This document shows, piece after piece, positions 7,989 to 23,716 of a DNA stretch of 32,000 bases; position 1 is the first letter of the stretch; the number at the start of each line of letters is the position of its first letter. The DNA lies in the NCBI GenBank assembly GCA_023402175.1, contig JAEXCN010000099.1, positions 25,178 to 57,177 of the forward strand, in the 5' to 3' direction. A program made the position numbers and the translations under genes. The notes beneath the pieces are model-generated. The model made no database searches and was not told the DNA's origin. It saw nothing but the letters and a program-made list of their open reading frames with translations. This stretch comes from Pseudomonadota bacterium (lineage in GTDB: Bacteria; Myxococcota_A; Polyangia; Polyangiales; Polyangiaceae).

Positions 7989-8045
7989 GTCAGCTCACCG
8001 GGGTTGAACCGGCAGCCTCTGCTCTCGGCCACGTTGGCGAGCAGT
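7989..8045 (-). pseudogene. truncated tRNA-like remnant (hairpin plus T-arm, ~57 nt)
   Basis: Hairpin CTGCTC...GAGCAG followed by T-arm GCCGG-TTCAACC-CCGGT. No complete cloverleaf and only 5/7 acceptor pairs. Confidence 0.4.
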
Positions 8046-8118
8046 ACGGGGCGAGAGGATCGAACTCTCCTAGCCCTGCTTGTGAGGCAGGTGTCATCAC
8101 CAGATGAGCGGGCCCCGC
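8045..8118 (-). tRNA. tRNA-Val(CAC), 74 nt, degenerate D-stem
   Basis: Acceptor GCGGGGC/GCCCCGT (G1-U72). AC CCTGC-CTCACAA-GCAGG. T GAGAG-TTCGATC-CTCTC. C8, and D-stem GCTC/TGAC mispaired. Confidence 0.65.
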
Positions 8119-8157
8119 GTTCTCCGCCCCGAACCGCAGCTCGGAGCGTTTTGCCGG

Positions 8158-8231
8158 TTCCGGAGGAGGGATTCGCACCCCTCATCCCAGCGGTTCAAAG
8201 CCGCGGATCTTTGCTCTTGGACCACTCCGGA
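8158..8231 (-). tRNA. tRNA-Gln(UUG), 74 nt, non-canonical
   Basis: Acceptor TCCGGAG/CTCCGGA. AC loop CTTTGAA. T-loop TGCGAAT (G55). D-loop CAAGAGCAAA lacks GG. Confidence 0.6.
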
Positions 8232-8285
8232 TCGGGCGCGTCGTGAGCGCTCGTACTCGAGCGCGTCCAGGGCAAGACGCGCCGG

Positions 8286-8354
8286 TCGCTACGGGCAGAG
8301 TCGAACTGCCTGGGCCGCGCTCATGAGGCGCGCCCTCCTCCGAGGAACGCAGCG
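8286..8354 (-). tRNA. tRNA(CAU) Met/Ile2-type, 69 nt, mini D-arm
   Basis: Acceptor CGCTGCG/CGTAGCG. D CCTC-GGAG-GAGG (4-nt loop). AC CGCGC-CTCATGA-GCGCG. T GGCAG-TTCGACT-CTGCC. Confidence 0.65.
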
Positions 8355-8389
8355 ATGCTTGCGTTCTGCACGGATGCGAACGCAGGCGG

Positions 8390-8460
8390 AGCGGTGACCG
8401 AGAATCGCACTCGGATCTCGAGCGTGGCGGGCTCGGGTTCTACTCTTGAACTATCACCGC
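8390..8460 (-). tRNA. tRNA-Gly(GCC), 71 nt, non-canonical
   Basis: Acceptor GCGGTGA/TCACCGC. D GTTC-AAGAGTA-GAAC (no GG). AC CGAGC-CCGCCAC-GCTCG (C33). T CCGAG-TGCGATT-CTCGG (G55). Confidence 0.7.
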
Positions 8461-8566
8461 AGAGGCCGGGCGATGACACCCATCGCGCACGGGTAGAGCG
8501 GCCCTCGCACCGTCCTCATCCTTCGCTACCAGTGAGGTGCCCCGCTCTCTGGCCGTGGGCGGCACG

Positions 8567-8623
8567 TGAAAAGAGCTCGTCCCCAAGTCATGTCCGCTTG
8601 GAGCTGTCCCTCGTGGGGACGAG
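8567..8623 (-). terminator. possible intrinsic terminator downstream of rsr
   Basis: Minus sense: 10-bp GC stem GCTCGTCCCC/GGGGACGAGC followed by TCTTTTC. The apical loop is long (30 nt), so the call is weak. Confidence 0.35.
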
Positions 8624-8705
8624 CAGGTGATCGGCAACGAGGGGCGTGAAGACGGGCCTTCACGGGCATTTGCCGGATGAATTCGATCGAGTCGCAGATC
8701 GACAA

Positions 8706-10313
8706 TCAGATCGAGACGGACTCGATCTCGTGGAGAAAGGCGGAGCCGTCGGCGTCACCTTTCGCGAACGCGGCCACGATCTCGAAGACGGCATCGGAGA
8801 AACCGCCGACGTTCAGCACATCGCTGCGGTTCGCGACCTGCGTGGTCGCGTAGGGCTGCAGGTCGACGAGCACGAGCCTGGCGCGCGGATTGTTCGCACG
8901 GAGTCGCTCCCATTCCTCGGCCATGACGGTCGCTCTCGTCGCGTTCGATGCGCTCGGATCCACAGCGCGTGGCTCGAGCCTGAAGTCCGCCCACGACTGG
9001 TTGTCGGAGACGAAGACGACGAGGTCGGGGGCCATGCCGCGCGCATTGAGCCACCGCAGCGGCGCAGCGCACGAGGTCCCGCCGCTCGGGAGCGACGAGA
9101 GGAGCTCGGCGTTGGTGACCACCGAATCCAGCGCGTTGAGCTGACGACGAAGGGGGACGACGTCGTCCGAGAACGGCAGGACCGTCGCGCGCTCGTTCTT
9201 CCGGAGCAGCGCGGCAGTCGCGAGCGCGGCGACGTCGATGCAACGGACCTTGGAGGAGGCAGTCCCGCGCCGGCCCGTGACTGGAGAGTGCATCGACCCT
9301 GACACGTCCGGACACAGCGCGACGGAGCCGGCGACCTCGGGCACGTTCGCGACGGCGTGCTCGACGGAGCGAGCCAGCGCGTTGACGATCCCCGGCGGCA
9401 TGCTGGTCTCGACCGCGCGATATGCGGCGAGGAGCTGATAGGGGAGTGTGCGCGAGCGCTTCACGGCCTCGGCATCCGAGAGCTTCTCGGCGACGAGATC
9501 GACCATCGCGGGATCGGTGAAGACGCCGTGACGGTAGAGCGTGTTGAGGTTCTGGCGGAGCTGATTGAACGTCATCTTCTTCGCCAGCTCGGTCCAGTGC
9601 TGGGCGCGCAGTGGGAGAGCGGTGAGCATCTCGAACGGCACGTCCGGCAGAGGCTCCCGATCGTTCTTCTTCCAGGCTTCGAATGCCTGGGTGAGCGGCG
9701 GGAGCTTGGAGCAGTCCACGTTCTTTCCGATGAGGTAGCCGTAGAGGGCCTCACGAACGGCATCGGCTTCGCCCTTGTCGTTCCGCGGGGGAGGGCGAAC
9801 CATCTTGATGACGTCCGACATGGACGGGCTCTGACCGATGGACTGGCGGAAGATGGTCTCGGGGCTCTTCGCTGCGAACCATTCGCGGAGCGCTCGCTTC
9901 GGGGCCGAGCCGAACGACTTGCGGCCCGTGACACCGGAGCGAACGATCGCCACGAACGTCCGCAGCATCCGCGCGTCGTCGATGACGCGTGGGAAGACAC
10001 GCAGCATGAGGGCGACATCGCGCGCGGCGAGCCAGGCGACGAGGAACGCCGGGACGTCCTTCATCCTGCCGTGCTTGCGGCAATACACGGCCGTCTTTGC
10101 GACGAGCTCCGGGCTCACCGAGCTCGCGAGTGCCGCGACGTTCTCGAGCTGCTGCTCGTCGGTCGCGTAGAACGTGCCGTGAAACGTGCCGGTGACTGCG
10201 TATTGCGCCAGAGCATGCTCGGGCGGGAGCGCGTATGCCAGGCCGCCGGCTTCGTTGAATGCGTCGGCAACGGGGGCATTTCCTCCGTGACCAAATAGAT
10301 GCTTGTTCGGCAT
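8706..10313 (-). CDS. rsr: Ro60-related protein Rsr (TROVE domain plus vWA/MIDAS domain), 535 aa
   Basis: ATG 10313 preceded by AAGGAGAAACC. N-terminus NEAGGLAYAL...GTFHGTFYATDEQQ (TROVE-like). C-terminus ALCPDVSGSM (DxSxS MIDAS)...GGTSCAAPL...VFVSDNQSW. The track ORF extends to 10988 only because the upstream tRNA genes lack stops. Confidence 0.85.
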   Translation of the reverse strand: MPNKHLFGHGGNAPVADAFNEAGGLAYALPPEHALAQYAVTGTFHGTFYATDEQQLENVAALASSVSPELVAKTAVYCRKHGRMKDVPAFLVAWLAARDVALMLRVFPRVIDDARMLRTFVAIVRSGVTGRKSFGSAPKRALREWFAAKSPETIFRQSIGQSPSMSDVIKMVRPPPRNDKGEADAVREALYGYLIGKNVDCSKLPPLTQAFEAWKKNDREPLPDVPFEMLTALPLRAQHWTELAKKMTFNQLRQNLNTLYRHGVFTDPAMVDLVAEKLSDAEAVKRSRTLPYQLLAAYRAVETSMPPGIVNALARSVEHAVANVPEVAGSVALCPDVSGSMHSPVTGRRGTASSKVRCIDVAALATAALLRKNERATVLPFSDDVVPLRRQLNALDSVVTNAELLSSLPSGGTSCAAPLRWLNARGMAPDLVVFVSDNQSWADFRLEPRAVDPSASNATRATVMAEEWERLRANNPRARLVLVDLQPYATTQVANRSDVLNVGGFSDAVFEIVAAFAKGDADGSAFLHEIESVSI

Positions 10314-10403
10314 GGTTTCTCCTTTCCGAGCTCGTGTGAGGTGTCGGTCGTGCGCTTGCTCCGGCGCACGATCGTGTGTTGTTCCGGTTTCGAAGAGATG
10401 AGG

Positions 10404-10477
10404 CGTTCCCGACGGGATTCGAACCCGTGTTCCTGGCTTGAGAGACCAGAGTCCTTGGCCGTCTAGACGACGGGAAC
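10404..10477 (-). tRNA. tRNA-Glu(CUC), 74 nt, canonical
   Basis: GTTCCCG TC GTC-TAGACGGCCAAG-GAC T CTGGT-CTCTCAA-GCCAG GAAC ACGGG-TTCGAAT-CCCGT CGGGAAC G. Confidence 0.9.
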
Positions 10478-10519
10478 CGACGAGGAGCGCGCGGAGGCGC
10501 GGGCGCAGTCGAAAGATGA

Positions 10520-10647
10520 AGGTCGTCCGAGTGTCTCGAGCATCGGTGTTGACTTGGGAGTCGAACCCAAAACGGTCAGCTTCTGAGGCTGGTGTCCTTC
10601 CATTGGACGAGTCGAGTGCGTGTGAGCTCGGGTCGAGCGGACGACCT
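10520..10647 (-). ncRNA. Y-RNA-like candidate: tRNA-like domain (anticodon CAG, short variable loop, weak acceptor) clamped by a long terminal stem module
   Basis: 10-bp H1 AGGTCGTCCG/CGGACGACCT, 7x7 internal loop (CTCGACC / AGACACT), 5-bp H2 CGAGC/GCTCG, then TCACACGC. This leads into D GTCC-AATGGAA-GGAC, AC CCAGC-CTCAGAA-GCTGA and T TTGGG-TTCGACT-CCCAA. The same module occurs in units A-D. Lies about 200 nt upstream of rsr. Confidence 0.5.
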
Positions 10648-10721
10648 GGATGCAGCGGCTGGAGTCGCACCAGCGTCTCGAGCTTATGAGGCTCGCGGGG
10701 TGGCTCCTCCCCCACGCTGCA
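10647..10721 (-). tRNA. tRNA(CAU) Met/Ile2-type, 72 nt plus encoded CCA
   Basis: Acceptor TGCAGCG/CGCTGCA. D GGGG-AGGAGCCA-CCCC. AC CGAGC-CTCATAA-GCTCG. T GCTGG-TGCGACT-CCAGC (G55). T73-CCA. Confidence 0.75.
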
Positions 10722-10760
10722 ATGAGTCTCCGGATCGAGAGTGTTCTCGCGTCTGGAGGG

Positions 10761-10830
10761 CACCTTCGCCGGGAGTCGAACCCGGAGAACGAGCTTCGGA
10801 GGCTCGGCCCTGATTCCGCAGGACGAAGGT
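10761..10830 (-). tRNA. tRNA-Arg(CCG), 70 nt
   Basis: Acceptor ACCTTCG/CGAAGGT. AC CGAGC-CTCCGAA-GCTCG. T CCGGG-TTCGACT-CCCGG. D-arm CCTG-CGGAAT-CAGG shifted by 1 nt. Confidence 0.7.
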
Positions 10831-10834
10831 AGGG

Positions 10835-10923
10835 AGGAAGAAAGAGGTCTCGAACCCCACACGCTCTTCCGAGCGTGCGCATTGCTTTCGAGGCAAGCCC
10901 GGCGCCCAGCCGGTTTTTCATCC
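10835..10923 (-). tRNA. tRNA-Ser(CGA), class II, 89 nt
   Basis: Acceptor GGATGAA/TTCTTCC (one U-U). AAA linker. D CCGG-CTGGGCG-CCGG. AC loop CTCGAAA. Variable arm ACGCTC-GGAA-GAGCGT. T-loop TTCGAGA. Confidence 0.75.
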
Positions 10924-10930
10924 ATGTCAG

Positions 10931-11003
10931 TGGTCGGTGAGGGAATCGAACCCCCTACGCAGAGCTTTTCAAACTCCCGCTCTACCAATTGAGCTTACCG
11001 ACC
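10931..11003 (-). tRNA. tRNA-Phe(GAA), 73 nt, canonical
   Basis: GGTCGGT AA GCTC-AATTGGTA-GAGC G GGAGT-TTGAAAA-GCTCT GCGTA GGGGG-TTCGATT-CCCTC ACCGACC A. Confidence 0.9.
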
Positions 11004-11015
11004 GTTTCAACGTGC

Positions 11016-11090
11016 TGGCCTCCCCGCCAGGAATCGAACCTGGACAACTGGCTTCGTAGACCGGTGCGTGGGATCCACCACGACGAGGAG
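11016..11090 (-). tRNA. tRNA-Arg(ACG), 72 nt plus encoded CCA
   Basis: Acceptor CTCCTCG/CGGGGAG. AC loop CTACGAA (stem has a C-A mismatch). T CCAGG-TTCGATT-CCTGG. 5-bp shifted D-stem CGTGG/CCACG. Confidence 0.7.
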
Positions 11091-11094
11091 AGGG

Positions 11095-11182
11095 AGGAAG
11101 GCAGAGGACTCGAACCTCACGCGGCTCGACACCGCGCGAATCGCGTTCCAGACGATCTCCGCCCCCGGCGGATTTGCCTTCC
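11095..11182 (-). tRNA. tRNA-Ser(GGA), class II, 88 nt
   Basis: Acceptor GGAAGGC/GCCTTCC. AAA linker. D TCCG-CCGGGGG-CGGA. AC ATCGT-CTGGAAC-GCGAT. Variable arm CGCGG...CCGCG. T-loop TTCGAGT. Paralog of Ser(CGA). Confidence 0.75.
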
Positions 11183-11216
11183 GGGTATTGCAATGCGCCT
11201 GCTCATGCGAGCGCGG

Positions 11217-11291
11217 TCAGGACGGCAGGATTCGAACCTGCGCTCTCCAGTCCCCCAGACTGGCGCTTTTGCCGGGCTAAGCTACGCCCTG
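11217..11291 (-). tRNA. tRNA-Pro(GGG), 75 nt
   Basis: CAGGGCG TA GCTT-AGCCCGGCAA-AAGC G CCAGT-CTGGGGG-ACTGG AGAGC GCAGG-TTCGAAT-CCTGC CGTCCTG A. Confidence 0.85.
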
Positions 11292-11390
11292 AGGCTTTCA
11301 CGTAGTCGTGGAAATCAAGAATAAAGTGGTCCAGTTTCACGTCATGGACCAGGACGCGGGAGCTCTGTCGACGCTCACGCGATCGACGCC

Positions 11391-11924
11391 TCATGCAGAG
11401 AGCGGAGCCGAAGCCGTGTAGCCGTCGCAGTACGGCTGCCAGACATCCGGCAGATCACCCTCATCGAGACGGATCGGCGGCACGGCGGGCAGCCAGGTCG
11501 GCTTCTTCGGCTGCCGCAGCAGCTTCATGCCGGCCTGCTCAGGCGTGCGGCTCCCCTTGCGATCGTTGCATGCGTAGCAGGAGGTGACGATGTTCTCCCA
11601 AACCGTCTTTCCTCCCTGCACGCGCGGGATGACGTGGTCGTAGTTGAGGCCTCTGATCGGCTTCTTGTCACCGCAGTACTGGCAGCGGAACCTGTCGCGC
11701 GTAAAGACGTTCATCCGGGAGAAGCGGACCGACTGCTTCGTCGACACCGACCCCTTCTTCAGGCGGACCACGGCGGGCGTCATCATCGCGATGCTCGGGG
11801 CACGGAGCTCCGCGTCCCAGGTCTCGATGACTTCGACCTTGCCGAGATAAGCCAGCACGACGGCGCGCTGCCAGGGAATGATCTTGTGAGGCGCCATCCA
11901 TGGAGTCAGCATCAGCGTTTGCAT
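11391..11924 (-). CDS. HNH endonuclease (177 aa)
   Basis: CQYCG...DHVIPRVQGGKTVWENIVTSCYACNDRKG (HNH with Cys4 zinc motif). N-terminus IIPWQRAVVLAYLGKVEVIE is typical of the small stand-alone HNH family. Same strand as the tRNA array. Confidence 0.85.
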   Translation of the reverse strand: MQTLMLTPWMAPHKIIPWQRAVVLAYLGKVEVIETWDAELRAPSIAMMTPAVVRLKKGSVSTKQSVRFSRMNVFTRDRFRCQYCGDKKPIRGLNYDHVIPRVQGGKTVWENIVTSCYACNDRKGSRTPEQAGMKLLRQPKKPTWLPAVPPIRLDEGDLPDVWQPYCDGYTASAPLSA

Positions 11925-12064
11925 GGGTCACCGTTTCTTTCTCGTTTTCAAGGCTCGATCTCCTTTTCGGAGGGATGAAGAAGTCGTGCGGGATGCACGA
12001 CGACGGGCGTCATCAGAGATAGCGAACGGACGGTGCGCTGATGTTGCTCGGATATGGCGAGTAG

Positions 12065-12149
12065 TGTCACCGGAGGGAGTCGAACCCTCAAACTCGCAAC
12101 GGAGCCCAGCATCTCGGGCTGGCGTGTATTCCAGTTCCACCACGGTGAC
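12065..12149 (-). tRNA. tRNA-Leu(GAG), class II, 85 nt
   Basis: Acceptor GTCACCG/CGGTGAC, A73. 3-bp D-stem. AC CCAGC-CCGAGAT-GCTGG (C33). ~16-nt variable arm. T GAGGG-TTCGACT-CCCTC. Confidence 0.8.
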
Positions 12150-12186
12150 GTGTCGCGTCCGTCTCGCGCTCGGCGATCTTGGACGT

Positions 12187-12266
12187 TGGTACCGACGGAG
12201 GGATTCGAACCCTCACAACACACAGTTTCTGAGACTGCGGCCTCTACCAGATTGGGCCACGTCGGC
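12187..12266 (-). tRNA. tRNA with Leu anticodon CAG but only a 7-nt variable loop (77 nt plus CCA)
   Basis: GCCGACG TG GCC-CAATCTGGTAGA-GGC C GCAGT-CTCAGAA-ACTGT GTGTTGT GAGGG-TTCGAAT-CCCTC CGTCGGT A CCA. Leu-like D-arm but no long variable arm. Confidence 0.65.
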
Positions 12267-12298
12267 ATGAAGCGCGATCCGCAGGGCGGCTTGCGCGG

Positions 12299-12373
12299 TC
12301 TGTGCAGGAGGATTCGAACCTCCAATCCCTCCGACCCGAACGGAGTGCTCTAGCCAGGTTGAGCCATGCACAG
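12299..12373 (-). tRNA. tRNA-Pro(CGG), 75 nt, canonical
   Basis: CTGTGCA TG GCTC-AACCTGGCTA-GAGC A CTCCG-TTCGGGT-CGGAG GGATT GGAGG-TTCGAAT-CCTCC TGCACAG A (C1-G72, A73). Confidence 0.9.
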
Positions 12374-12412
12374 AGAAACGACGATGATCGACGGGAGCTC
12401 GAGCCATCGCCG

Positions 12413-12484
12413 TGGTGGACCAGTCGGGAGTCGCACCCGAACCATCTGCTTGCAAGACAGACGTCTCCCCTCGGAGACAAGCCC
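12413..12484 (-). tRNA. tRNA-Ala(UGC), 69 nt plus CCA, mini D-arm
   Basis: Acceptor GGGCTTG/CTGGTCC with G3-U70. D CTCC-GAGG-GGAG (4-nt loop). AC TCTGT-CTTGCAA-GCAGA. T TCGGG-TGCGACT-CCCGA (G55). Confidence 0.7.
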
Positions 12485-12523
12485 ATGTTGAATCACTGCA
12501 TGACGGCGGGACTGGCCCGCCGG

Positions 12524-12596
12524 TGCGGCGCGCAGGGATCGCACCTGCCTCCTCCTGCTCGTCATGCAGGCGCAGTCGCTAGACTGCCAGCGCCGC
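12524..12596 (-). tRNA. tRNA-Val(GAC), 73 nt
   Basis: GCGGCGC TG GCAG-TCTAGCGA-CTGC G CCTGC-ATGACGA-GCAGG AGGAG GCAGG-TGCGATC-CCTGC GCGCCGC A. G55, and no GG in the D-loop. Confidence 0.75.
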
Positions 12597-12619
12597 TCTT
12601 CTCGTCGAAGAGAGCTTCG

Positions 12620-12692
12620 TGGATCACCTGCGAATCGAACGCAGTGCGGGCTCCTTATCAGAGAGTCCAGGGTGACCAACCCGTCGTGATCC
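12620..12692 (-). tRNA. tRNA-Ile(GAU), 73 nt
   Basis: GGATCAC GA CGGG-TTGGTCAC-CCTG G ACTCT-CTGATAA-GGAGC CCGCA CTGCG-TTCGATT-CGCAG GTGATCC A. Confidence 0.8.
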
Positions 12693-12715
12693 GTCGTTTA
12701 TGTCTGGTGAACGAT

Positions 12716-12787
12716 TGGAGAGCCGAGAGGGAGTTGAACCCTCGCGCGCCGTTTTGCAGACGACGATCCTCCCCGGAGAATCGGCTC
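12716..12787 (-). tRNA. tRNA-Cys(GCA), 69 nt plus CCA, mini D-arm
   Basis: Acceptor GAGCCGA/TCGGCTC. D TCC-GGGGA-GGA. AC GTCGT-CTGCAAA-ACGGC. T GAGGG-TTCAACT-CCCTC. T73-CCA. Confidence 0.65.
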
Positions 12788-12852
12788 GAAGAAGTGGGCG
12801 CAGTTCCCTGTTGGCCGACGTCACGTGCGCGTCGGACGTTGGGGCTGCGCGG

Positions 12853-12923
12853 AGCGGGCAGAGGGAATCGCACCCTCATTGTCAGTTTGGAAGACTGCGG
12901 TCCTACTGTTGGACGATACCCGC
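12853..12923 (-). tRNA. tRNA-Gly(UCC), 71 nt
   Basis: GCGGGTA TC GTCC-AACAGTA-GGAC C GCAGT-CTTCCAA-ACTGA CAAT GAGGG-TGCGATT-CCCTC TGCCCGC T. G55, and no GG in the D-loop. Confidence 0.75.
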
Positions 12924-13119
12924 AGGATATGAATCGAAGTATCGCAAGCCTCGACGAGATTGACGAAGACGTAGGTGATCGGCAGCTCGCGCTGCCGGGC
13001 ACCATGATGCACGAGCGAGCAGCAGCCGCTCTTGCATCATCGGCACATTGAAGCCGCCCGCGAAGGCAGCTTCCGTTCGCCCCGCAAGGAGAGAGTCCAC
13101 CGAGGTGGTCTCCTGAGAA

Positions 13120-13225
13120 GCGCTCGGCTGGAGTCCGCGGAGCGCTCTCTGACTCTCCCTATGCCATCGCTAGGTCGGTCGCCCGACGTTCGCTACCTTA
13201 GGACCGTTATAGTTACGGATGTAGT
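13120..13225 (-). ncRNA. 23S rRNA domain IV (H69-H71) look-alike fragment inside a ~400-nt non-tRNA spacer
   Basis: Minus sense 13218..13189 reads CCGTAACTATAACGGTCCTAAGGTAGCGAA, which as I recall it is the universally conserved 23S segment and contains the I-CeuI site. It is followed by GTCGGG..CCGACCT..CGATGGC..GAGAGTCAGAGA..CCGCGG, patches colinear with 23S H70/H71 but with the loops deleted. Confidence 0.6.
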
Positions 13226-13322
13226 CCTCGTCGGCATTCGAGACCGACGCTGATGTTGCTCGTGTCGTGTGAGATCTGTTGTTCGTAATTTTCGAGATCG
13301 CTGCCCAGGGATGGGGCAGCGC

Positions 13323-13398
13323 TGGTGGAACCGGCCGGACTCGCACCGGCAACCTCCTCGATGCCATCGAGGCGCTCTCCTGGCTGAGCTACGGCCCC
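13323..13398 (-). tRNA. tRNA-Ala(GGC), 73 nt plus CCA
   Basis: GGGGCCG TA GCTC-AGCCAGGA-GAGC G CCTCG-ATGGCAT-CGAGG AGGTT GCCGG-TGCGAGT-CCGGC CGGTTCC A CCA. G3-U70, G55. Confidence 0.85.
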
Positions 13399-13425
13399 TT
13401 TCGTTCGGATGTCCTTCGCGTGTGG

Positions 13426-13499
13426 TGGTGGAGCGACGGGGAATCGCACCCCGATCCCTGCAATGCGAATGCAGCGTTCTCCTGTTGAACTATCGCCCC
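13426..13499 (-). tRNA. tRNA-Ala(CGC), 71 nt plus CCA
   Basis: GGGGCGA TA GTTC-AACAGGA-GAAC G CTGCA-TTCGCAT-TGCAG GGAT CGGGG-TGCGATT-CCCCG TCGCTCC A CCA. G3-U70, G55. Confidence 0.8.
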
Positions 13500-13533
13500 A
13501 GGGTCCCCACGTGGTGGGGAGCAGACAAGTCGG

Positions 13534-13604
13534 CAGGCCGCGAAGGAATCGAACCCTCTCTCCGGGGGTTGGAATCCCGGCTGGTCACCATGACTCTACG
13601 GCCT
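13534..13604 (-). tRNA. tRNA-Trp(CCA), 71 nt, aberrant D-arm
   Basis: Acceptor AGGCCGT/GCGGCCT, G73. AC CGGGA-TTCCAAC-CCCCG (A31-C39 mismatch). T GAGGG-TTCGATT-CCTTC. The D region pairs only as GTC-ATGGT-GAC. Confidence 0.65.
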
Positions 13605-13631
13605 GTGCTCTCGAGCGCGGTGCGCTTGCAG

Positions 13632-13703
13632 CGCCTCGTAGGGGAATCGAACCCCTCTCGCCCCATAGACAGTGGGGTTGCGACGCCAGTCGCATCACGA
13701 GGC
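13632..13703 (-). tRNA. tRNA-Asp(GUC), 72 nt
   Basis: GCCTCGT GA TGCG-ACTGGCGT-CGCA A CCCCA-CTGTCTA-TGGGG CGAG AGGGG-TTCGATT-CCCCT ACGAGGC G. Position 37 is U. Confidence 0.75.
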
Positions 13704-13727
13704 AATGAACGTCGATATTCGTGGCGG

Positions 13728-13799
13728 TGTCCTCGGCAGGAGTCGAACCCGCGTCTGCCGGTTTAGAAGACCGGCGCCTCTCCGCTCGGCCACGAGGAC
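13728..13799 (-). tRNA. tRNA-Arg(UCU), 72 nt
   Basis: GTCCTCG TG GCC-GAGCGGAGA-GGC G CCGGT-CTTCTAA-ACCGG CAGAC GCGGG-TTCGACT-CCTGC CGAGGAC A. The D-arm looks like a class II type. Confidence 0.75.
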
Positions 13800-13820
13800 G
13801 TTCTTGCTCTCCTGGCTCGG

Positions 13821-13885
13821 CGTCCCCGGCAGGAGTCGAACCTGCGTCGACCGGATTAGGAGCCTATCCGTTCGGCCAGGATGAC
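13821..13885 (-). pseudogene. tRNA-like paralog of Arg(UCU) with ~7-nt deletion in the anticodon arm (65 nt)
   Basis: GTCATCC TG GCC-GAACGGATA-GGC T CC..TAATCCGG TCGAC GCAGG-TTCGACT-CCTGC CGGGGAC G. Two acceptor mismatches and no 5-7-5 anticodon arm. Confidence 0.5.
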
Positions 13886-13929
13886 AGAGGCTGTCTGCGC
13901 AGGCGAAGAGTGGATCGGTGCGCGGCCGG

Positions 13930-14002
13930 GGTAGCGTACGGGAATCGCACCCGCCTCCACTGAGTCACAATCAGCCCTCGTCACTAGACGAGTAACGCTA
14001 CC
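13930..14002 (-). tRNA. tRNA-His(GUG) with encoded G-1, 73 nt
   Basis: G-1 GTAGCGT TA CTCG-TCTAGTGA-CGAG G GCTGA-TTGTGAC-TCAGT GGAG GCGGG-TGCGATT-CCCGT ACGCTAC C73. G55. Confidence 0.8.
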
Positions 14003-14084
14003 ATGTATTCAGATGCTCATTCGAGTCGGTGATGTCAACCTCGAGCCTGAATTTCGTCTGCCGTTGATAGGCACTTCGTCGAAC

Positions 14085-14159
14085 TGGTGCTCCCGATCGG
14101 AATCGAACCGATACCTTCCGCTTGAAAGGCGGAGATCCTGACCACTAGATGACGGGAGC
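14085..14159 (-). tRNA. tRNA-Glu(UUC), 72 nt plus CCA
   Basis: GCTCCCG TC ATC-TAGTGGTCAG-GAT C TCCGC-CTTTCAA-GCGGA AGGT ATCGG-TTCGATT-CCGAT CGGGAGC A CCA. Confidence 0.85.
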
Positions 14160-14165
14160 AAACGT

Positions 14166-14308
14166 GTCGTCCGAGTGAGAAGGTCGTTGTCATGTGAATG
14201 ACGGGTTGACTGCCCGTTGCCTTACCACTTGGCTACGATGGCGAAACGCCAGCGGCTGGATTCGAACCAGCGATTCGATTGCGTGTAGGACCTGTTCGAT
14301 CGGACGAC
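14166..14308 (-). ncRNA. permuted tRNA-like ncRNA unit A (Y-RNA/YrlA-like candidate)
   Basis: Minus-sense order: H1 GTCGTCCG, loop ATCGAAC, H2 AGGTC, CTACACGCAATCGAATC. Then T-arm GCTGG-TTCGAAT-CCAGC, acceptor 3' strand CGCTGGC, cap GTTTC, acceptor 5' strand GCCATCG, TA. Then D GCC-AAGTGGTAA-GGC, hairpin ACGGG-CAGTCAA-CCCGT, H2' GACCT, loop TCTCACT, H1' CGGACGAC. Confidence 0.5.
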
Positions 14309-14457
14309 GACGAGGGGGCCGTAGAGCGCCGACGATGATCGGCGCGGTAAAGGAGCGCCTCGTCAGGTGCGTGCCTGCGAGGCGTGGAGCTCAGAGGCGA
14401 GCTCGGCAAGCTCGGCGGCGTCCGGTGCGTTGGACGCGCGGGCTGCTGAAGAAAAGT

Positions 14458-14627
14458 CCTCACCCGAGTGAAAAAGCCGGTTGGATGGTTCCATCATTCA
14501 AGATGAGTGCCTTTACCAGTTAGGCTATCGCTGCGTACGATTTGCGGTGGCGGGCACCGTGAGCAGCGAGTCGGATTCGAACCGACATTTCCTCGATTGC
14601 GTGTAGGGCATCTTCGGTCGGGTGAGG
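14458..14627 (-). ncRNA. permuted tRNA-like ncRNA unit B
   Basis: H1 CCTCACCCG/CGGGTGAGG, loops ACCGAAG / TTTCACT, H2 ATGCC/GGCTT, CTACACGCAAT. T GTCGG-TTCGAAT-CCGAC. Acceptor TCGCTGC, 28-nt cap, GCAGCGA. D GCC-TAACTGGTAAA-GGC. Hairpin TCATC-TTGAAT-GATGG. Confidence 0.5.
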
Positions 14628-14663
14628 GAAATCGGAATGCGCTTAGCTCGCTGCGCGAGCATC

Positions 14664-14744
14664 TGGTCCCCCGTGATGGAATCGAACCACCTACCGAAAG
14701 GCACCGGGTTACGACCGGCTGCTCCGCCATGGAGCGAACGAGGG
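14664..14744 (-). tRNA. tRNA-Tyr(GUA), 78 nt plus CCA
   Basis: CCCTCGT TC GCTC-CATGGCG-GAGC A GCCGG-TCGTAAC-CCGGT GCCTTTCGGTA GGTGG-TTCGATT-CCATC ACGGGGG A CCA. C33, 11-nt variable region. Confidence 0.75.
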
Positions 14745-14752
14745 AAGAGGGG

Positions 14753-14909
14753 CACCCGAGTGAGAAAGCCGTGTTGTCGTCTGAATGGACGAGCGCCTTA
14801 CCATTAGGCCACGCTGGAATAGGTGTTTTGGAGCTCGATGGCTCACGGCTCCAGCGGACGGAATCGAACCGTCGTGTCTCATTGCGTGTAGGGCATTCCC
14901 TGGCGGGTG
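14753..14909 (-). ncRNA. permuted tRNA-like ncRNA unit C
   Basis: H1 CACCCG/CGGGTG, loops CCAGGGA / TCTCACT, H2 ATGCC/GGCTT, CTACACGCAAT. T GACGG-TTCGATT-CCGTC. Acceptor CGCTGGA, 31-nt cap, TCCAGCG (identical to the tRNA-Asn acceptor). D GCC-TAATGGTAA-GGC. Hairpin TCGTC-CATTCA-GACGA. Confidence 0.5.
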
Positions 14910-14913
14910 ACGG

Positions 14914-14985
14914 AGCCCACGTCCGGAGTCGAACCGGATCCTCCCGTGTACGAGACGGGTGCTCGACCATTCGAGCTGCGCGGGC
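14914..14985 (-). tRNA. tRNA-Thr(CGU), 72 nt, canonical
   Basis: GCCCGCG CA GCTC-GAATGGTC-GAGC A CCCGT-CTCGTAC-ACGGG AGGA TCCGG-TTCGACT-CCGGA CGTGGGC T. Confidence 0.9.
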
Positions 14986-14988
14986 AGG

Positions 14989-15042
14989 GGCCCCATGTAC
15001 TCATGGGGAACGAAAGAGGCGGGCCCCATGTACTCATGGGGA
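14989..15042. repeat. two direct copies of a 21-bp hairpin element (GGCCCCATGTACTCATGGGGA), period 33 bp
   Basis: Copies at 14989-15009 and 15022-15042. Each contains the inverted repeat CCCCATG-tact-CATGGGG. A related CCATG-ttgct-CATGG occurs at about 15486-15500. Confidence 0.7.
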
Positions 15043-15118
15043 AAAGAAGGTGCTCGCGGTGCGCGCGTCGCCTGGGTGGGAGGCGCGCGCGCCGGCGCGA
15101 GCGGGTGAGAAGAATGTC

Positions 15119-15264
15119 TCGTCCGAGTGGAGAAGCCGGTGCAAGTGCTCGTATGCGAAACGAGTGCCTTCCCATTAGGCTAGCAGCCCTGTGCCTTGCG
15201 GCTGGTGGACCACGTTGGAGTCGAACCAACATGTTGTGCGTGTAAGGCTTGTCCGAGCGGACGA
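15119..15264 (-). ncRNA. permuted tRNA-like ncRNA unit D (tRNA-Ala-type body)
   Basis: H1 TCGTCCG/CGGACGA, loops CTCGGAC / CTCCACT, H2 AAGCC/GGCTT, TTACACGCACAACAT. T GTTGG-TTCGACT-CCAAC. GTGGTCC-A-CCA, 13-nt linker GCCGCAAGGCACA, then GGGCTGC (7 pairs including G3-U70). TA, D GCC-TAATGGGAA-GGC, hairpin CTCGT-TTCGCAT-ACGAG (CGC). Confidence 0.55.
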
Positions 15265-15269
15265 AGAAG

Positions 15270-15341
15270 CTCCAGCGGAAGGAATCGAACCTTCGAAGGA
15301 CCGGTTAACGGCCGGCTGCCTGACCATTCGGCTTCGCTGGA
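15270..15341 (-). tRNA. tRNA-Asn(GUU), 72 nt
   Basis: TCCAGCG AA GCC-GAATGGTCA-GGC A GCCGG-CCGTTAA-CCGGT CCTTC GAAGG-TTCGATT-CCTTC CGCTGGA G. C33, U1-A72, G73. Confidence 0.8.
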
Positions 15342-15521
15342 ATACGTGCTCGTCGCGTTCGTGCCGCGCTGCTGCCGTCTCGACGAACCCGATCTCTTCC
15401 GAGGCAGGACGACGAAGCGGTCAGCGCGCACGAGACGCGACGAGCCTTGGCGCCAAGTTGTCATAGAGCGAGGGACCTCGAGCTCCCCATGTTGCTCATG
15501 GAGAACGAGACCGAGAGTCCT

Positions 15522-15595
15522 TGGTTCCGAGCACAGGATTCGAACCTGTCTTCCTGGTTTCAGAGGCCAGTGTCCTGCCGCTAGACGAGCCCGGA
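15522..15595 (-). tRNA. tRNA-Gln(CUG) with Glu-type body, 71 nt plus CCA
   Basis: TCCGGGC TC GTC-TAGCGGCAG-GAC A CTGGC-CTCTGAA-ACCAG GAAG ACAGG-TTCGAAT-CCTGT GCTCGGA A CCA. Close in body to Glu(CUC) at 10404. Confidence 0.75.
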
Positions 15596-15653
15596 GCAGG
15601 CGGCGGCGTGCGAAGGTCGCAAGTCGCCGGTGCCACGTCGTTCGACGCAGCAG

Positions 15654-15726
15654 TAGGTCCGGAGGGAATCGAACCCTCACCACCCCGGGTAAGAGCCGGG
15701 TGCGCTTCCGATTGCGCTACGGACCT
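15654..15726 (-). tRNA. tRNA-Lys(CUU), 73 nt, canonical
   Basis: AGGTCCG TA GCGC-AATCGGAA-GCGC A CCCGG-CTCTTAC-CCGGG GTGGT GAGGG-TTCGATT-CCCTC CGGACCT A. Confidence 0.9.
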
Positions 15727-15788
15727 GTATTTGGCGCGATGCGACGAACCGGGGCAGCACTGCCCGCAGCCGCACGCATCGCGGTGAG

Positions 15789-15861
15789 TGGGACGCGAGG
15801 GAGTCGAACCCTCATCCCTCGGCTTAAAAGGCCGGTGCTCGGCCGATTGAGCTAGCGCCCC
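15789..15861 (-). tRNA. tRNA-Lys(UUU), 73 nt, canonical
   Basis: GGGGCGC TA GCTC-AATCGGCC-GAGC A CCGGC-CTTTTAA-GCCGA GGGAT GAGGG-TTCGACT-CCCTC GCGTCCC A. First gene of the array in the direction of transcription. Confidence 0.9.
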
Positions 15862-16253: not shown

Positions 16254-16541
16254 CTAGGGGTCGCCTTCCTCCTGCTTGGCGCTCGAATCGAGCGGACGAG
16301 GGGCGGCGAGCATGCGGCTACCGGCCTGGTCGAGGCCAGAGAGACCGCCGAAGAGCGACAGAGAGACCGAGCTCACGTTGGAGTTGTGGCTATTCAGCCC
16401 GACGGCGGCCCCGCCAAAGGCAGGGCGACGCCACGCGCGATGCAGCCGTCCCTCGGACGCGAGATACGCCACGCCGGTGCGCGGGAGCGCCTCGGTCGTC
16501 GTCGTCCTCTTGTCTTGGAAGGAGAGAATCACGCGGAACAT
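16254..16541 (-). CDS. small hypothetical protein (95 aa)
   Basis: High GC3 and followed by a good terminator, but the RBS is poor (GGAG 13 nt from the ATG) and no family is recognisable. Confidence 0.3.
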   Translation of the reverse strand: MFRVILSFQDKRTTTTEALPRTGVAYLASEGRLHRAWRRPAFGGAAVGLNSHNSNVSSVSLSLFGGLSGLDQAGSRMLAAPRPLDSSAKQEEGDP

Positions 16542-22402: not shown

Positions 22403-23575
22403 AGCAGGCCCGCGTGCGTTACTTCTCCCAGCGCAAGTAGAGGTCGGCTCGCCCGCACGAGGCAAGGCGCCGGTGAGCGCGGCGAACGACATGCGCTCGC
22501 CGCTGCGGAGCGATCGTTCGCTCGGCGAACGACGTGCGCCACTGCGCGTGGAGGGATCGTTCGGTCGGCGAACGACGTAGGCCCATGGGCGTGGAGGCGC
22601 CGCTCGCGCGAGGAACGACGTGGGCCCGTGCGTGGAGGGATCGTTCGGTCGGCGAACGACATGCGCTTGCCCGCGTGGAGAGCTCGTTCGGTCGGCGAAC
22701 GACGTGGGCCCGTGGGCGGGGAGGGATCGTTCGGTCGGCGAACGACGTGGCGGCCCCATGCGCGAGGAGTCATTGTTCGCTCGGCGAACGACCCCACGTG
22801 GAGCCCTCGTTCGTTTGGCGAACGTCCCCGCGGTAAGGCATCGTTCGCCCGGCGAACGACCCCGCGGGAAGGCGTCGTCGCCCGGCGAAAGACCGAACGA
22901 CCCGGGCCCGTCCGCATGGAGTCATCACGCGTGCGCTACTTCTCCCAGCGCAAGTAGAGGTCGGCGCCCACGCACAGGGCAGAGGTGGCGGTGAGCGCGG
23001 CGAACGACATGCGCTCGTCCGCGTAGATTCATCGTTCGTTCGGCGAACGACCTCGCGGTAAGGCACGTTCGCCCGGCGAACGACCTCGCGGTAAGGCAGG
23101 TTCGCCCGGCGAACGACCCCGCGGTTAGGCATCGTCGCCCGGCGAACGACCCCGCGGTAAGACATCGTCGCCCGGCGAACGACCTCGCGGTAAGGCAGGT
23201 TCGCCCGGCGAACGACCCCGCGGTAAGGCATCGTCGCCCGGCGAACGACCTCGCGGTAAGGCACGTTCGTTCGGCGAACGACCCCGCGGTAAGGCATCGT
23301 TCGCCCGGCGAGCGACCTCGCGGTGACGCACGTTCGCCCGGCGAACGACCCCGCGGTAAGGCATCGTCGCCCGGCGAACGACCCCGGCCGTGCGCGTGGA
23401 GTCACCACGCGTGGGTTACTTGTCCCAGCGCAAGTAGAGGTCGGCGCCCACGCACAAGGCAGAGGTGGCGGTGAGCGCGGCGAACGACGTGTGCTCGTCC
23501 GCGTGGATTCATCGTTCGCTCTGCGAACGACGTGTGCTCGTCCGCGTGGATTCATCGTTCGCTCTGCGAACGTCT
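22403..23575. repeat. composite repeat field: ~22 copies of the palindrome CGTTCGCC-C-GGCGAACG, including a 33-bp tandem array (about 23033-23390), plus three copies of a ~115-bp module
   Basis: Module copies at about 22403-22515, 22917-23033 and 23397-23512 (..TTACTTCTCCCAGCGCAAGTAGAGGTCGGCG..GGTGAGCGCGGCGAACGAC..). There are no unique spacers. Lies between convergent genes. Confidence 0.85.
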
Positions 23576-23716
23576 GCCGGAGATGCCGCGTCCGGCCGCG
23601 TGCGTCCGTATCCGGTGAGCGCGAGAGCGCGGTCGGCAACGACGGGGAGGCCGGCATGAAGGCGTTCGGACCCTCGGATCAGCTTATTCTGCGAATGCTC
23701 ACGGGGAGGCGTGCGG

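Follow-up and report, generated by a model that had tools for sequence, protein, structure and literature searches.

The window, by which we mean the whole stretch of 32,000 nucleotides that was analysed, carries an array of more than 31 minus-strand tRNA genes (8044..15861). The array is interrupted by rsr, by an HNH endonuclease ORF (11391..11924) and by several Y-like units, and it is flanked by common chromosomal genes (recA, a comM/Mg-chelatase-like gene, an M18 aminopeptidase, a sigma-54 activator and an SDR gene). The Rsr protein is 57–87% identical to its orthologues in Labilithrix/Polyangiaceae and 45% identical to the TROVE protein of Myxococcus phage Mx1, the closest phage Rsr. The start of rsr lies 206 nt downstream of the element studied here, on the same strand, in agreement with the roughly 200 nt of the original prediction, and this position is conserved in at least nine loci. 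The features of the locus are as follows.

8706..10313, minus strand: rsr, encoding a Ro60 orthologue of 535 aa (Pfam TROVE and vWA_Ro60)
10402..10477, minus strand: tRNA-Glu(ctc), called by ARAGORN, between the element and rsr
10520..10647, minus strand: the whole predicted RNA of 128 nt (unit 5), a Y RNA-like stem with an unpermuted tRNA-like domain
10647..10721, minus strand: tRNA-Met(cat), called by ARAGORN, immediately upstream of the element
12187..12266: an ordinary tRNA-Leu(cag) of the array
14165..14309, minus strand: unit D, a permuted YrlA-like Y RNA with the same stem module (fold z-score -3.60)
14459..14626, minus strand: unit C, a permuted YrlA-like Y RNA with the same stem module
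14753..14909, minus strand: unit B, a permuted YrlA-like Y RNA with the same stem module
15118..15265, minus strand: unit A, a permuted YrlA-like Y RNA with the same stem module (fold z-score -3.83)

Two features of this locus were absent from the original prediction, namely the intervening tRNA-Glu and the CCA end of tRNA-Met that abuts the first helix (H1) of the element. The 3′ end of tRNA-Met (...CAUCCA) overlaps H1 by one base, so that the first A of the H1 5′ strand doubles as the last A of the CCA end. The same junction (CATCCA followed by GGTCG, and similar) recurs in orthologues. The position and anticodon of tRNA-Glu(ctc) are likewise kept in orthologous loci.

A stem module joined to a complete cloverleaf

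Reading of the minus strand bore out the predicted anatomy, with a perfect 10-bp H1, a 7x7 internal loop, a 5-bp H2 and a junction motif that enclose a D arm, an anticodon arm (CAG) and a T arm. The normal order of the three arms was found in the sequence and by ARAGORN, and the acceptor-like strands pair at 4 of 7 positions. From the 5′ to the 3′ end the element consists of the following parts, all on the minus strand.

10638..10647: H1 5′ strand AGGUCGUCCG, pairing with 10520..10529 over a perfect 10 bp
10631..10637: 5′ strand of the internal loop, CUCGACC, 7 nt
10626..10630: H2 5′ strand CGAGC, pairing with 10537..10541 over a perfect 5 bp
10618..10625: junction motif UCACACGC (YYACACGC), common to all five units of the window
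10547..10617: tRNA-like domain, recognised by ARAGORN, by the Rfam tRNA model and by covariation of its arms
10617..10611 and 10553..10547: acceptor-like strands ACUCGAC and GUCAACA
between the 5′ acceptor-like strand and the D arm: U8-C9 of the tRNA-like domain
10608..10594: D arm GUCC-AAUGGAA-GGAC, followed by a single A
10592..10576: anticodon arm CCAGC-CUCAGAA-GCUGA, with CAG at 10585..10583
10575..10571: variable region CCGUU, 5 nt
10570..10554: T arm UUGGG-UUCGACU-CCCAA
10542..10546: 3′ junction CCGAU, from the acceptor-like strand to the 3′ strand of H2, variable in length and sequence among orthologues
10537..10541: H2 3′ strand GCUCG
10530..10536: 3′ strand of the internal loop, AGACACU, 7 nt
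10520..10529: H1 3′ strand CGGACGACCU

ARAGORN reported 10545..10616 as tRNA-Leu(cag), and the core of the element scored 36.6 bits with the Rfam tRNA model (RF00005; gathering score 29). Compared with real tRNAs of the array, the domain shows only generic similarity, with the best scores for Leu-cag and Arg-ccg. As a single sequence, the element folds with a z-score of only -2.28. The duplex of its leader and trailer, at -27.9 kcal/mol, ranks first of 32 in the window, but this energy alone does not discriminate, since four ordinary tRNAs of the window come close (-21.7 to -25.0 kcal/mol). The leader-trailer pairing of tRNA-Val(cac), the best of these four, is a chance match that is lost in orthologues. 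Because both measures separate weakly in a GC-rich array, we used orthologues as evidence, and the decisive evidence for the element is comparative.

The stem module is not confined to this element. The 32-kb window contains exactly five copies of the 5′ signature CCG-N12-YYACACGC, all on the minus strand, against an expectation of 0.18, and each copy has a CACUCGGR partner downstream. All five units have a common layout: H1, a 7-nt loop, a 5-bp H2 and YYACACGC on the 5′ side, then the second strand of H2, N3-CACU and CGGR leading into the second strand of H1. The 8-nt core of H1 in unit D is identical to that of unit 5. In units A–D, however, the interior runs in the order T arm, acceptor-like hairpin, D arm and anticodon-like hairpin, and the module enters the tRNA body at the variable region. 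Unit 5 was thus correctly predicted to be a fifth copy, with the spacing of units A–D and shared signatures. The further claim that one module is attached to two points of a tRNA body, the acceptor end in unit 5 and the variable region in units A–D, also stands, because units A–D have the same layout with a different interior. A candidate sixth module near 16300 (minus strand; CUCGUCCGCUCGAUUCGAGC) was rejected, as it has neither ACACGC nor a 3′ partner and gave no covariance-model match.

The 5′ loops of units A–D (CUCGGAC, CCAGGGA, ACCGAAG and AUCGAAC) follow the pattern NYCGRAN, and unit 5 has GUCCG-CUCGACC at the same place. In YrlA RNAs a GNCGAA-type motif has been proposed to contact Rsr (PMC4201824), and the 5′ loop of the element takes the same position. 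For bacterial Y RNAs as a class, the Ro60-contact motif of the 5′ strand is written as GNCGAAN0-1G or GGUCCGA-like. The motif is imperfect in the window element (CUCGACC) and is not kept in the 5′ loops of the relatives L005, L007, L083 and L092. The Rfam models for YrlA (gathering score 69 bits) and Y_RNA gave no match at 10520–10647, even at E<=10. The only YrlA match in the region is unit D, whose T-AS-D core aligns to positions 29–81 of the model with 21.6 bits, below threshold.

Relatives, synteny and covariation

We scanned genomes with the Rsr protein and obtained 22 loci, all from Labilithrix/Polyangiaceae (Myxococcota) MAGs and with 48–87% identity. Several of these loci lie on contigs of 200–850 kb. 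Metagenomes were scanned with the pattern CGAGCYYACACGC-N40-60-GGTTCGA, and the matches were filtered by eye and then with a covariance model. Eight of 100 pattern matches were true members; the remainder fell in coding sequence or in ordinary tRNAs, such as tRNA-Ala in L057, L064 and L118. Altogether, the element has 14 relatives in Labilithrix/Polyangiaceae genomes and metagenomes.

The order of genes near rsr is fixed: tRNA-Arg(ccg), tRNA-Met(cat), a slot X that holds the element, tRNA-Glu(ctc) and rsr. Nine of the 14 relatives occupy the slot tRNA-Met(CAT) – X – tRNA-Glu(CTC) – rsr, and the synteny from tRNA-Met to rsr is found in the window, L002, L003, L005, L007, L020, L083, L092 and L097. 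In these loci the element is on the same strand as rsr and about 200–290 nt upstream of it. From the Rsr scan, X is an orthologue of the element in L002, L003, L005, L007 and L020. The metagenome scan added L050, L083, L092 and L097, all with the same synteny (rsr was confirmed by tblastn in L083, L092 and L097), and also L051, L053, L076 with two copies (L076a and L076b) and L102. In L051 and L076 the element occurs in tandem arrays. Two syntenic loci, L004 and L009, do not have the element, their spacer between tRNA-Met and tRNA-Glu being only 48 nt, and it is therefore dispensable there. In L006 the X slot was unrecognisable.

With the covariance model R1, the 15 full-length members scored 78–124 bits (124.4 bits for the window element), and ordinary tRNAs with their flanks reached at most 60–62 bits. 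Viral sequences gave no relative in an Rsr-based scan of viral contigs, where the sole match to the DNA pattern (L124) was a chance match, and blastn of the element against 50,697 phage records gave no match. Near the TROVE gene of phage Mx1 only ordinary tRNAs were found and no module. The protein encoded downstream of the Y-like array in L051 has no sequence similarity to Rsr and no match among solved structures beyond its VWA domain.

We then assessed covariation in a model-based alignment (A3) of 15 distinct sequences, with 36 pairs and 500 shuffles. Standard pairs formed in 87.5% of cells, compared with 73.3% in shuffles; changes on both sides were seen in 22 of the 36 pairs, and the covariation score was 0.433 against 0.155. 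None of the 500 shuffles reached the observed paired share, double-change count or covariation score, and sliding the 3′ partners by 1–3 columns reduced pairing to 26–39%. A plain MAFFT alignment (A1), made without regard to the structure, gave the same picture, with 86.2% of cells paired and 18 double-change pairs. By helix, the paired cells were distributed as follows.

H1: 88%, with changes on both sides at 8 of 10 pairs in the 15 sequences
H2: 98.7%
D arm: 100%
anticodon arm: 98.7%
T arm: 98.7%
inner three acceptor pairs: 92.7%
outer four acceptor positions: 16%

Covariation was also seen in all three arms of the tRNA-like domain, and H2 in L076b is a compensated variant (AAAGC/GCUUU). The motif ACACGC is invariant in 14 of 14 sequences, although in the metagenomic members this invariance is partly ascertainment, since the scan pattern fixed CGAGC-YYACACGC; the six loci found via Rsr are free of it. 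Also invariant is the boundary between the 3′ loop and H1, CUCG (columns C117, T118, C119 and G120). The tertiary set of tRNA (U8, A14, G19, A21, G46, G53, T54-Psi55-C56, A58 and C61) is invariant or nearly so.

L002 is the closest relative of the window. The two share 100% identity in the 5′ module, 95% in the 3′ module, 85% in the body and 24% in the spacer, and their anticodon loops differ at 4 of 7 bases. Across eight orthologues, identity to the window is 55–100% for the module and 12–44% for the spacers; the bona fide neighbouring tRNAs are 73–100% identical. The identity of the module compared with the spacer, the covariation of H1 and the unconserved anticodon together give strong support to the original view that the module is the selected part rather than a discarded tRNA flank.

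A probable Y RNA and its alternatives

Published work on bacterial Y RNAs (Chen et al. 2014, PMC4201824; Wang et al. 2018, bioRxiv 10.1101/312249) places their genes upstream of rsr and in the same orientation, and describes polycistronic precursors that can contain tRNAs as well. One part of such an RNA is a stem made of its paired ends, which bears the Ro60 site and, in its 5′ strand, a GNCGAA-type motif; the other is an effector module that often resembles tRNA. In the features examined, which are proximity to rsr, an end-pairing stem and a tRNA-like second module, the element fits this definition: its strand is that of rsr, which lies within about 4 kb, a long stem (10-bp H1 and 5-bp H2) joins its two ends, and the second module, expected to consist of loops and stem-loops for binding an effector, is a full cloverleaf with conserved tertiary nucleotides. 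We therefore compared the element with the individual systems known.

YrlA RNAs, such as those of S. Typhimurium and M. smegmatis, make up Rfam family RF02553, and a crystal structure is available (PDB 6cu1). YrlA is a circularly permuted tRNA mimic in which the Rsr stem replaces the anticodon stem. Like YrlA, the element is encoded next to rsr on the same strand and has an end-paired terminal stem; the YrlA 5′ strand carries a CGAA-type motif. The YUAY that follows the stem in YrlA has its counterpart in UCAC in the window and CUAC or CCAC in most relatives, followed by the invariant ACGC. In both, a tRNA mimic serves as the effector module, its D and T arms and tertiary nucleotides are conserved, and there is no free CCA end. 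However, YrlA has the order V-T-AS-D with a loop-capped acceptor stem, whereas in the element the arms come in the order D-AC-T, the stem extends the acceptor end, and the anticodon arm, complete with its 7-nt loop, lies exposed.

Yrn1 of D. radiodurans is oriented opposite to YrlA and consists of a D-like element, a 5-bp 'anticodon arm' and a T arm (PMC4201824). This order places its Rsr-binding stem at the acceptor position, and attachment at the acceptor end thus has a precedent, which the original prediction did not mention. Yrn1 is also encoded upstream of rsr and co-transcribed with a tRNA (PMC4201824). By the published description of its topology, the element matches Yrn1 in the order of D, anticodon and T parts inside a terminal stem. 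Yrn1 differs in that it has no full D arm (dihydrouridine was not detected), a 6-nt 'anticodon' loop and no variable region, and both strands of its Ro-binding helix follow the metazoan type, whereas the stem of the element is of the YrlA type. In addition, the cloverleaf of the element passes tRNA detectors, and its stem module is shared with permuted paralogues at the locus. The Y-like RNAs of phages, such as Yrl1 and Yrl2 of Thermus phage phiLo, resemble the element in their 5′-3′ stem with an internal bulge and a CGAA motif, in their location just upstream of a Ro60 homologue and in the presence of several Y RNAs per locus, but their effector parts are hairpins only, and no tRNA-like cloverleaf has been described for them (PMC12135203).

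Taken with the sequence comparisons, these likenesses make it likely that the element is a non-coding Y RNA and a partner of the Ro60 orthologue Rsr encoded 206 nt downstream. We infer that the stem formed by H1, the 7x7 loop, H2 and YYACACGC would be the Rsr-binding site. The combination of a Yrn1-like attachment, a YrlA-like stem and a complete cloverleaf reads as a structural subtype that we did not find described in the literature searched. The element is thus most likely a Y RNA with a stem-clamped tRNA domain, an architecture that known bacterial Y RNAs do not have in such complete form.

It is unlikely, though conceivable, that this Y RNA is nicked or split, with RNase P and possibly a 3′ endonuclease cutting the acceptor-like helix. 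The result would be two to three pieces held together by H1 and H2, or a released tRNA-like piece and a bimolecular Rsr-binding stem. There is a precedent in M. smegmatis YrlA, which has a 7-bp acceptor stem: RNase P cuts this RNA and CCA is added while Rsr is still bound, and each of the halves co-precipitates with Rsr (PMC4201824). In our alignment, those nucleotides of the T arm and elbow that RNase P recognises do not vary, and the metagenomic members L051, L053, L076a and L102 could be RNase P substrates because they form 6–7 acceptor pairs. Against this, the window element and all its syntenic orthologues form only 2–5 of 7 acceptor pairs, with 84% of cells at the outer four positions lacking a pair. 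In YrlA and Yrn1 RNAs that do not have a 7-bp stem, Chen et al. saw no cleavage by RNase P (PMC4201824).

That the element is a genuine decoding tRNA, or one with a shifting anticodon, whose leader and trailer pair as a signal for processing or stability and are then discarded, is quite improbable. This reading would account for the tRNA-Leu(cag) call, the Rfam score above gathering, the intact cloverleaf with its tertiary nucleotides and the location inside a tRNA array. It would also account for U33 and the purine at position 37, which are mostly retained among members, so that the anticodon loop is not completely free. The likeness to a canonical tRNA (RF00005) further includes a 5-nt variable region and G18/G19. 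However, where a tRNA has a 7-bp acceptor with free ends, the ends of the element continue into H2 and H1, a conserved 15-bp bipartite stem. The acceptor remnant comprises 3–5 bp and no CCA end, compared with essentially complete stems in the ordinary tRNAs of the array. The triplet at the anticodon position differs in almost every orthologue (CAG, TCC, GTC, GCA, CCT, CTC, CGT, CGA, CAA, ATG and TGC), giving at least 11 triplets or abnormal loop lengths among the 15 members, and the loop has 6 or 8 nt in three of them; the anticodons of the flanking tRNA-Met(CAT), tRNA-Glu(CTC) and tRNA-Arg(CCG) are constant in every locus. A class I body with CAG would also be redundant with the tRNA-Leu(cag) of the array. 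Finally, the flanks of the element are conserved, covary and have motifs in common with four Y-like units that are not tRNAs, unlike the flanks of ordinary tRNAs, which are not conserved. The 3–5 bp acceptor remnant and the absence of a free CCA end and of a conserved anticodon argue for a non-decoding cloverleaf, and the gene-finder call of tRNA-Leu is most likely an annotation error, given the wandering anticodon.

We regard as highly improbable a cis-acting structure of the polycistron or rsr leader that serves, independently of Rsr, as processing punctuation or as a stability element. Such a role would fit an element that precedes rsr on its strand, has tRNAs immediately next to it and has no detectable promoter or terminator before the gene: our scan found no promoter-like sites and no minus-strand terminator between tRNA-Met, the element, tRNA-Glu and rsr, which is weak evidence from a scan that was otherwise uninformative. 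However, processing of the intervening tRNA-Glu would split the element from rsr, four other units carry the module up to 5 kb away from rsr, and L051 and L076 have tandem arrays. The module also matches the Y RNA design, with a terminal stem and a CGAA-type loop. A decaying tRNA pseudogene with fortuitous complementarity of its flanks is extremely improbable because of the covariation: the degenerate acceptor and variable anticodon would fit it, and some real tRNAs of the window have GC-rich flanks whose duplexes happen to be about as stable, but the D, anticodon and T arms are intact, H1 is compensated across an Rsr divergence of 57–87% identity, and the tertiary nucleotides are invariant while neutral spacers have diverged to 12–44% identity.

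Proposed function and significance

For the favoured Y RNA, we propose the following mechanism. The element is probably transcribed within a tRNA/Y RNA polycistron. Its 5′ end may be generated by 3′ processing of the abutting tRNA-Met, and RNase P, by cutting at the downstream tRNA-Glu, may release its 3′ side. The two ends pair into the bipartite stem, a module common with the four YrlA-like RNAs further up the array, joined to the acceptor end of a complete, normally ordered cloverleaf that keeps the nucleotides needed for the L-shape of tRNA. By analogy with characterised Y RNAs, the stem would dock on the Rsr ring and gate it. The tRNA-like domain could either tether Rsr to an effector that recognises tRNA or degrades RNA, or act as a nuclease-resistant tRNA mimic. 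In Deinococcus and Salmonella the effector is PNPase.

A more speculative idea, to which we give rather little credence, sees the module as a portable "Rsr leash" by which various tRNA bodies within tRNA arrays have been captured. In the syntenic group the D arm is similar to the tRNA-Gly/Glu type of the array, and the body in L051, L053, L076 and L102 is of the AGCUCA...GGUAGAGC type; these different types of D arm and body are hints that support such a capture. Unlike YrlA, unit 5 presents a whole anticodon arm whose triplet changes freely, and for this reason it could be a tethered tRNA decoy or sensor. If so, it might bait anticodon nucleases or enzymes directed at the anticodon loop and couple the event to the action of Rsr and an exonuclease. 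Alternatively, the Rsr ring would be placed where the 3′ end of a tRNA would be, which may point to surveillance of tRNA 3′ ends.

In Polyangiales genomes, annotation wrongly lists elements of this kind as tRNA genes whose identity seems to shift (Leu, Gly, Asp, Arg, Thr, Ser etc.). Bacterial Y RNAs are thought to be tRNA mimics, but the two types studied differ: YrlA is permuted and without an anticodon arm, and Yrn1 is only loosely tRNA-like. It has reportedly been proposed, by Hughes et al. in 2020, that a Y RNA serves as a competitor for anticodon nucleases, and a Y RNA with a real anticodon stem-loop would make this idea directly testable. Beside a single rsr, the locus presents both attachment geometries on one Rsr-stem module, at the anticodon or variable side four times and at the acceptor side once. 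The elbow is common to both geometries, whereas the anticodon arm and the acceptor end are not, and the locus is thus a natural experiment on which face of the tRNA matters.

Contents and possible origin of the tRNA array

Besides the called tRNA genes, the minus-strand tRNA array around rsr, the Ro60 orthologue gene, holds two sequences that match the Rfam tRNA model in the window, neither of which was called by ARAGORN, as well as an endonuclease gene and a short rRNA-like segment:

12416-12484, minus strand: tRNA-like sequence (31.7 bits)
15270-15341, minus strand: tRNA-Asn(gtt)-like gene (52 bits), directly 5′ of unit A, a permuted YrlA-like Y RNA
11391-11924, minus strand: HNH endonuclease ORF (Pfam HNH_5/HNH), inside the array
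13185-13215, minus strand: UAACUAUAACGGUCCUAAGGUAGCGAA, within the array

Low scores of 30–40 bits were obtained for many array tRNAs. The array spacers also contain a palindrome, CCCCAUGAGUACAUGGGG, in two copies, and the related CUCCAUGAGCAACAUGGGGAG (14990-15045 and about 15490-15510, minus strand).

The segment UAACUAUAACGGUCCUAAGGUAGCGAA is flanked by tRNA-Gly(tcc) and tRNA-Ala(ggc) and presumably corresponds to the recognition site of the homing endonuclease I-CeuI, a conserved stretch of 23S rRNA; the HNH ORF lies about 1.3 kb away. It was found in none of the 124 fetched loci and is therefore specific to the window genome. The closest phage Rsr is that of Myxococcus phage Mx1 (45% identity), and its gene likewise has tRNA genes and an HNH gene as neighbours. 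The shared arrangement is a hint that the island of array plus rsr is of phage-related origin, despite its chromosomal flanks (recA and others).

Elsewhere in the window, a long tandem-repeat tract (22480-23540; periods about 33 and 43 nt) with GGGTCGTTCG-type motifs overlaps an ORF on the minus strand (22770-23657) that has no match in Pfam.

The 5′ UTR of rsr

The rsr 5′ UTR (10314-10401, minus strand) carries a conserved hairpin, GUGCGC-[Y]CGAGCA[A/C]-GCGCAC (10374-10345), and GCUCGGAAAGGAG is conserved immediately ahead of the start codon. Among the loci compared, these elements also occur in L002, L004, L006, L009, L092 and L097 and are absent from L005, L007, L018 and L020. Because the hairpin loop UCGAGCA and the CUCGG near the start codon resemble the motifs of the Y-module, the inferred Rsr-binding stem, they may form a site for autoregulation by Rsr.

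Y-like RNAs in related loci

In L051, a metagenomic locus, four Y-like RNAs lie in tandem upstream of an ORF:

L051 9260-9720, minus strand: Y-like RNAs of, in listed order, hairpin, YrlA, unpermuted tRNA and hairpin type
L051 7485-9224, minus strand: ORF of 579 aa, with VWA as its sole Pfam match

No similarity between the 579-aa protein and Rsr from the window was detected; the protein may represent a highly diverged partner of the Ro60-like type.

In two loci, the orthologues of unit 5, the Y-like RNA with an unpermuted tRNA-like domain upstream of rsr, have additional Y-like RNAs as neighbours, and these carry the same stem module as unit 5:

L003 5704-5822: one Y-like RNA
L005 5165-5309 and 5504-5654: two Y-like RNAs

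Their interiors are either non-tRNA or partial, with a T-arm only. Thus, within this clade effector domains of at least three types are joined to the stem module.
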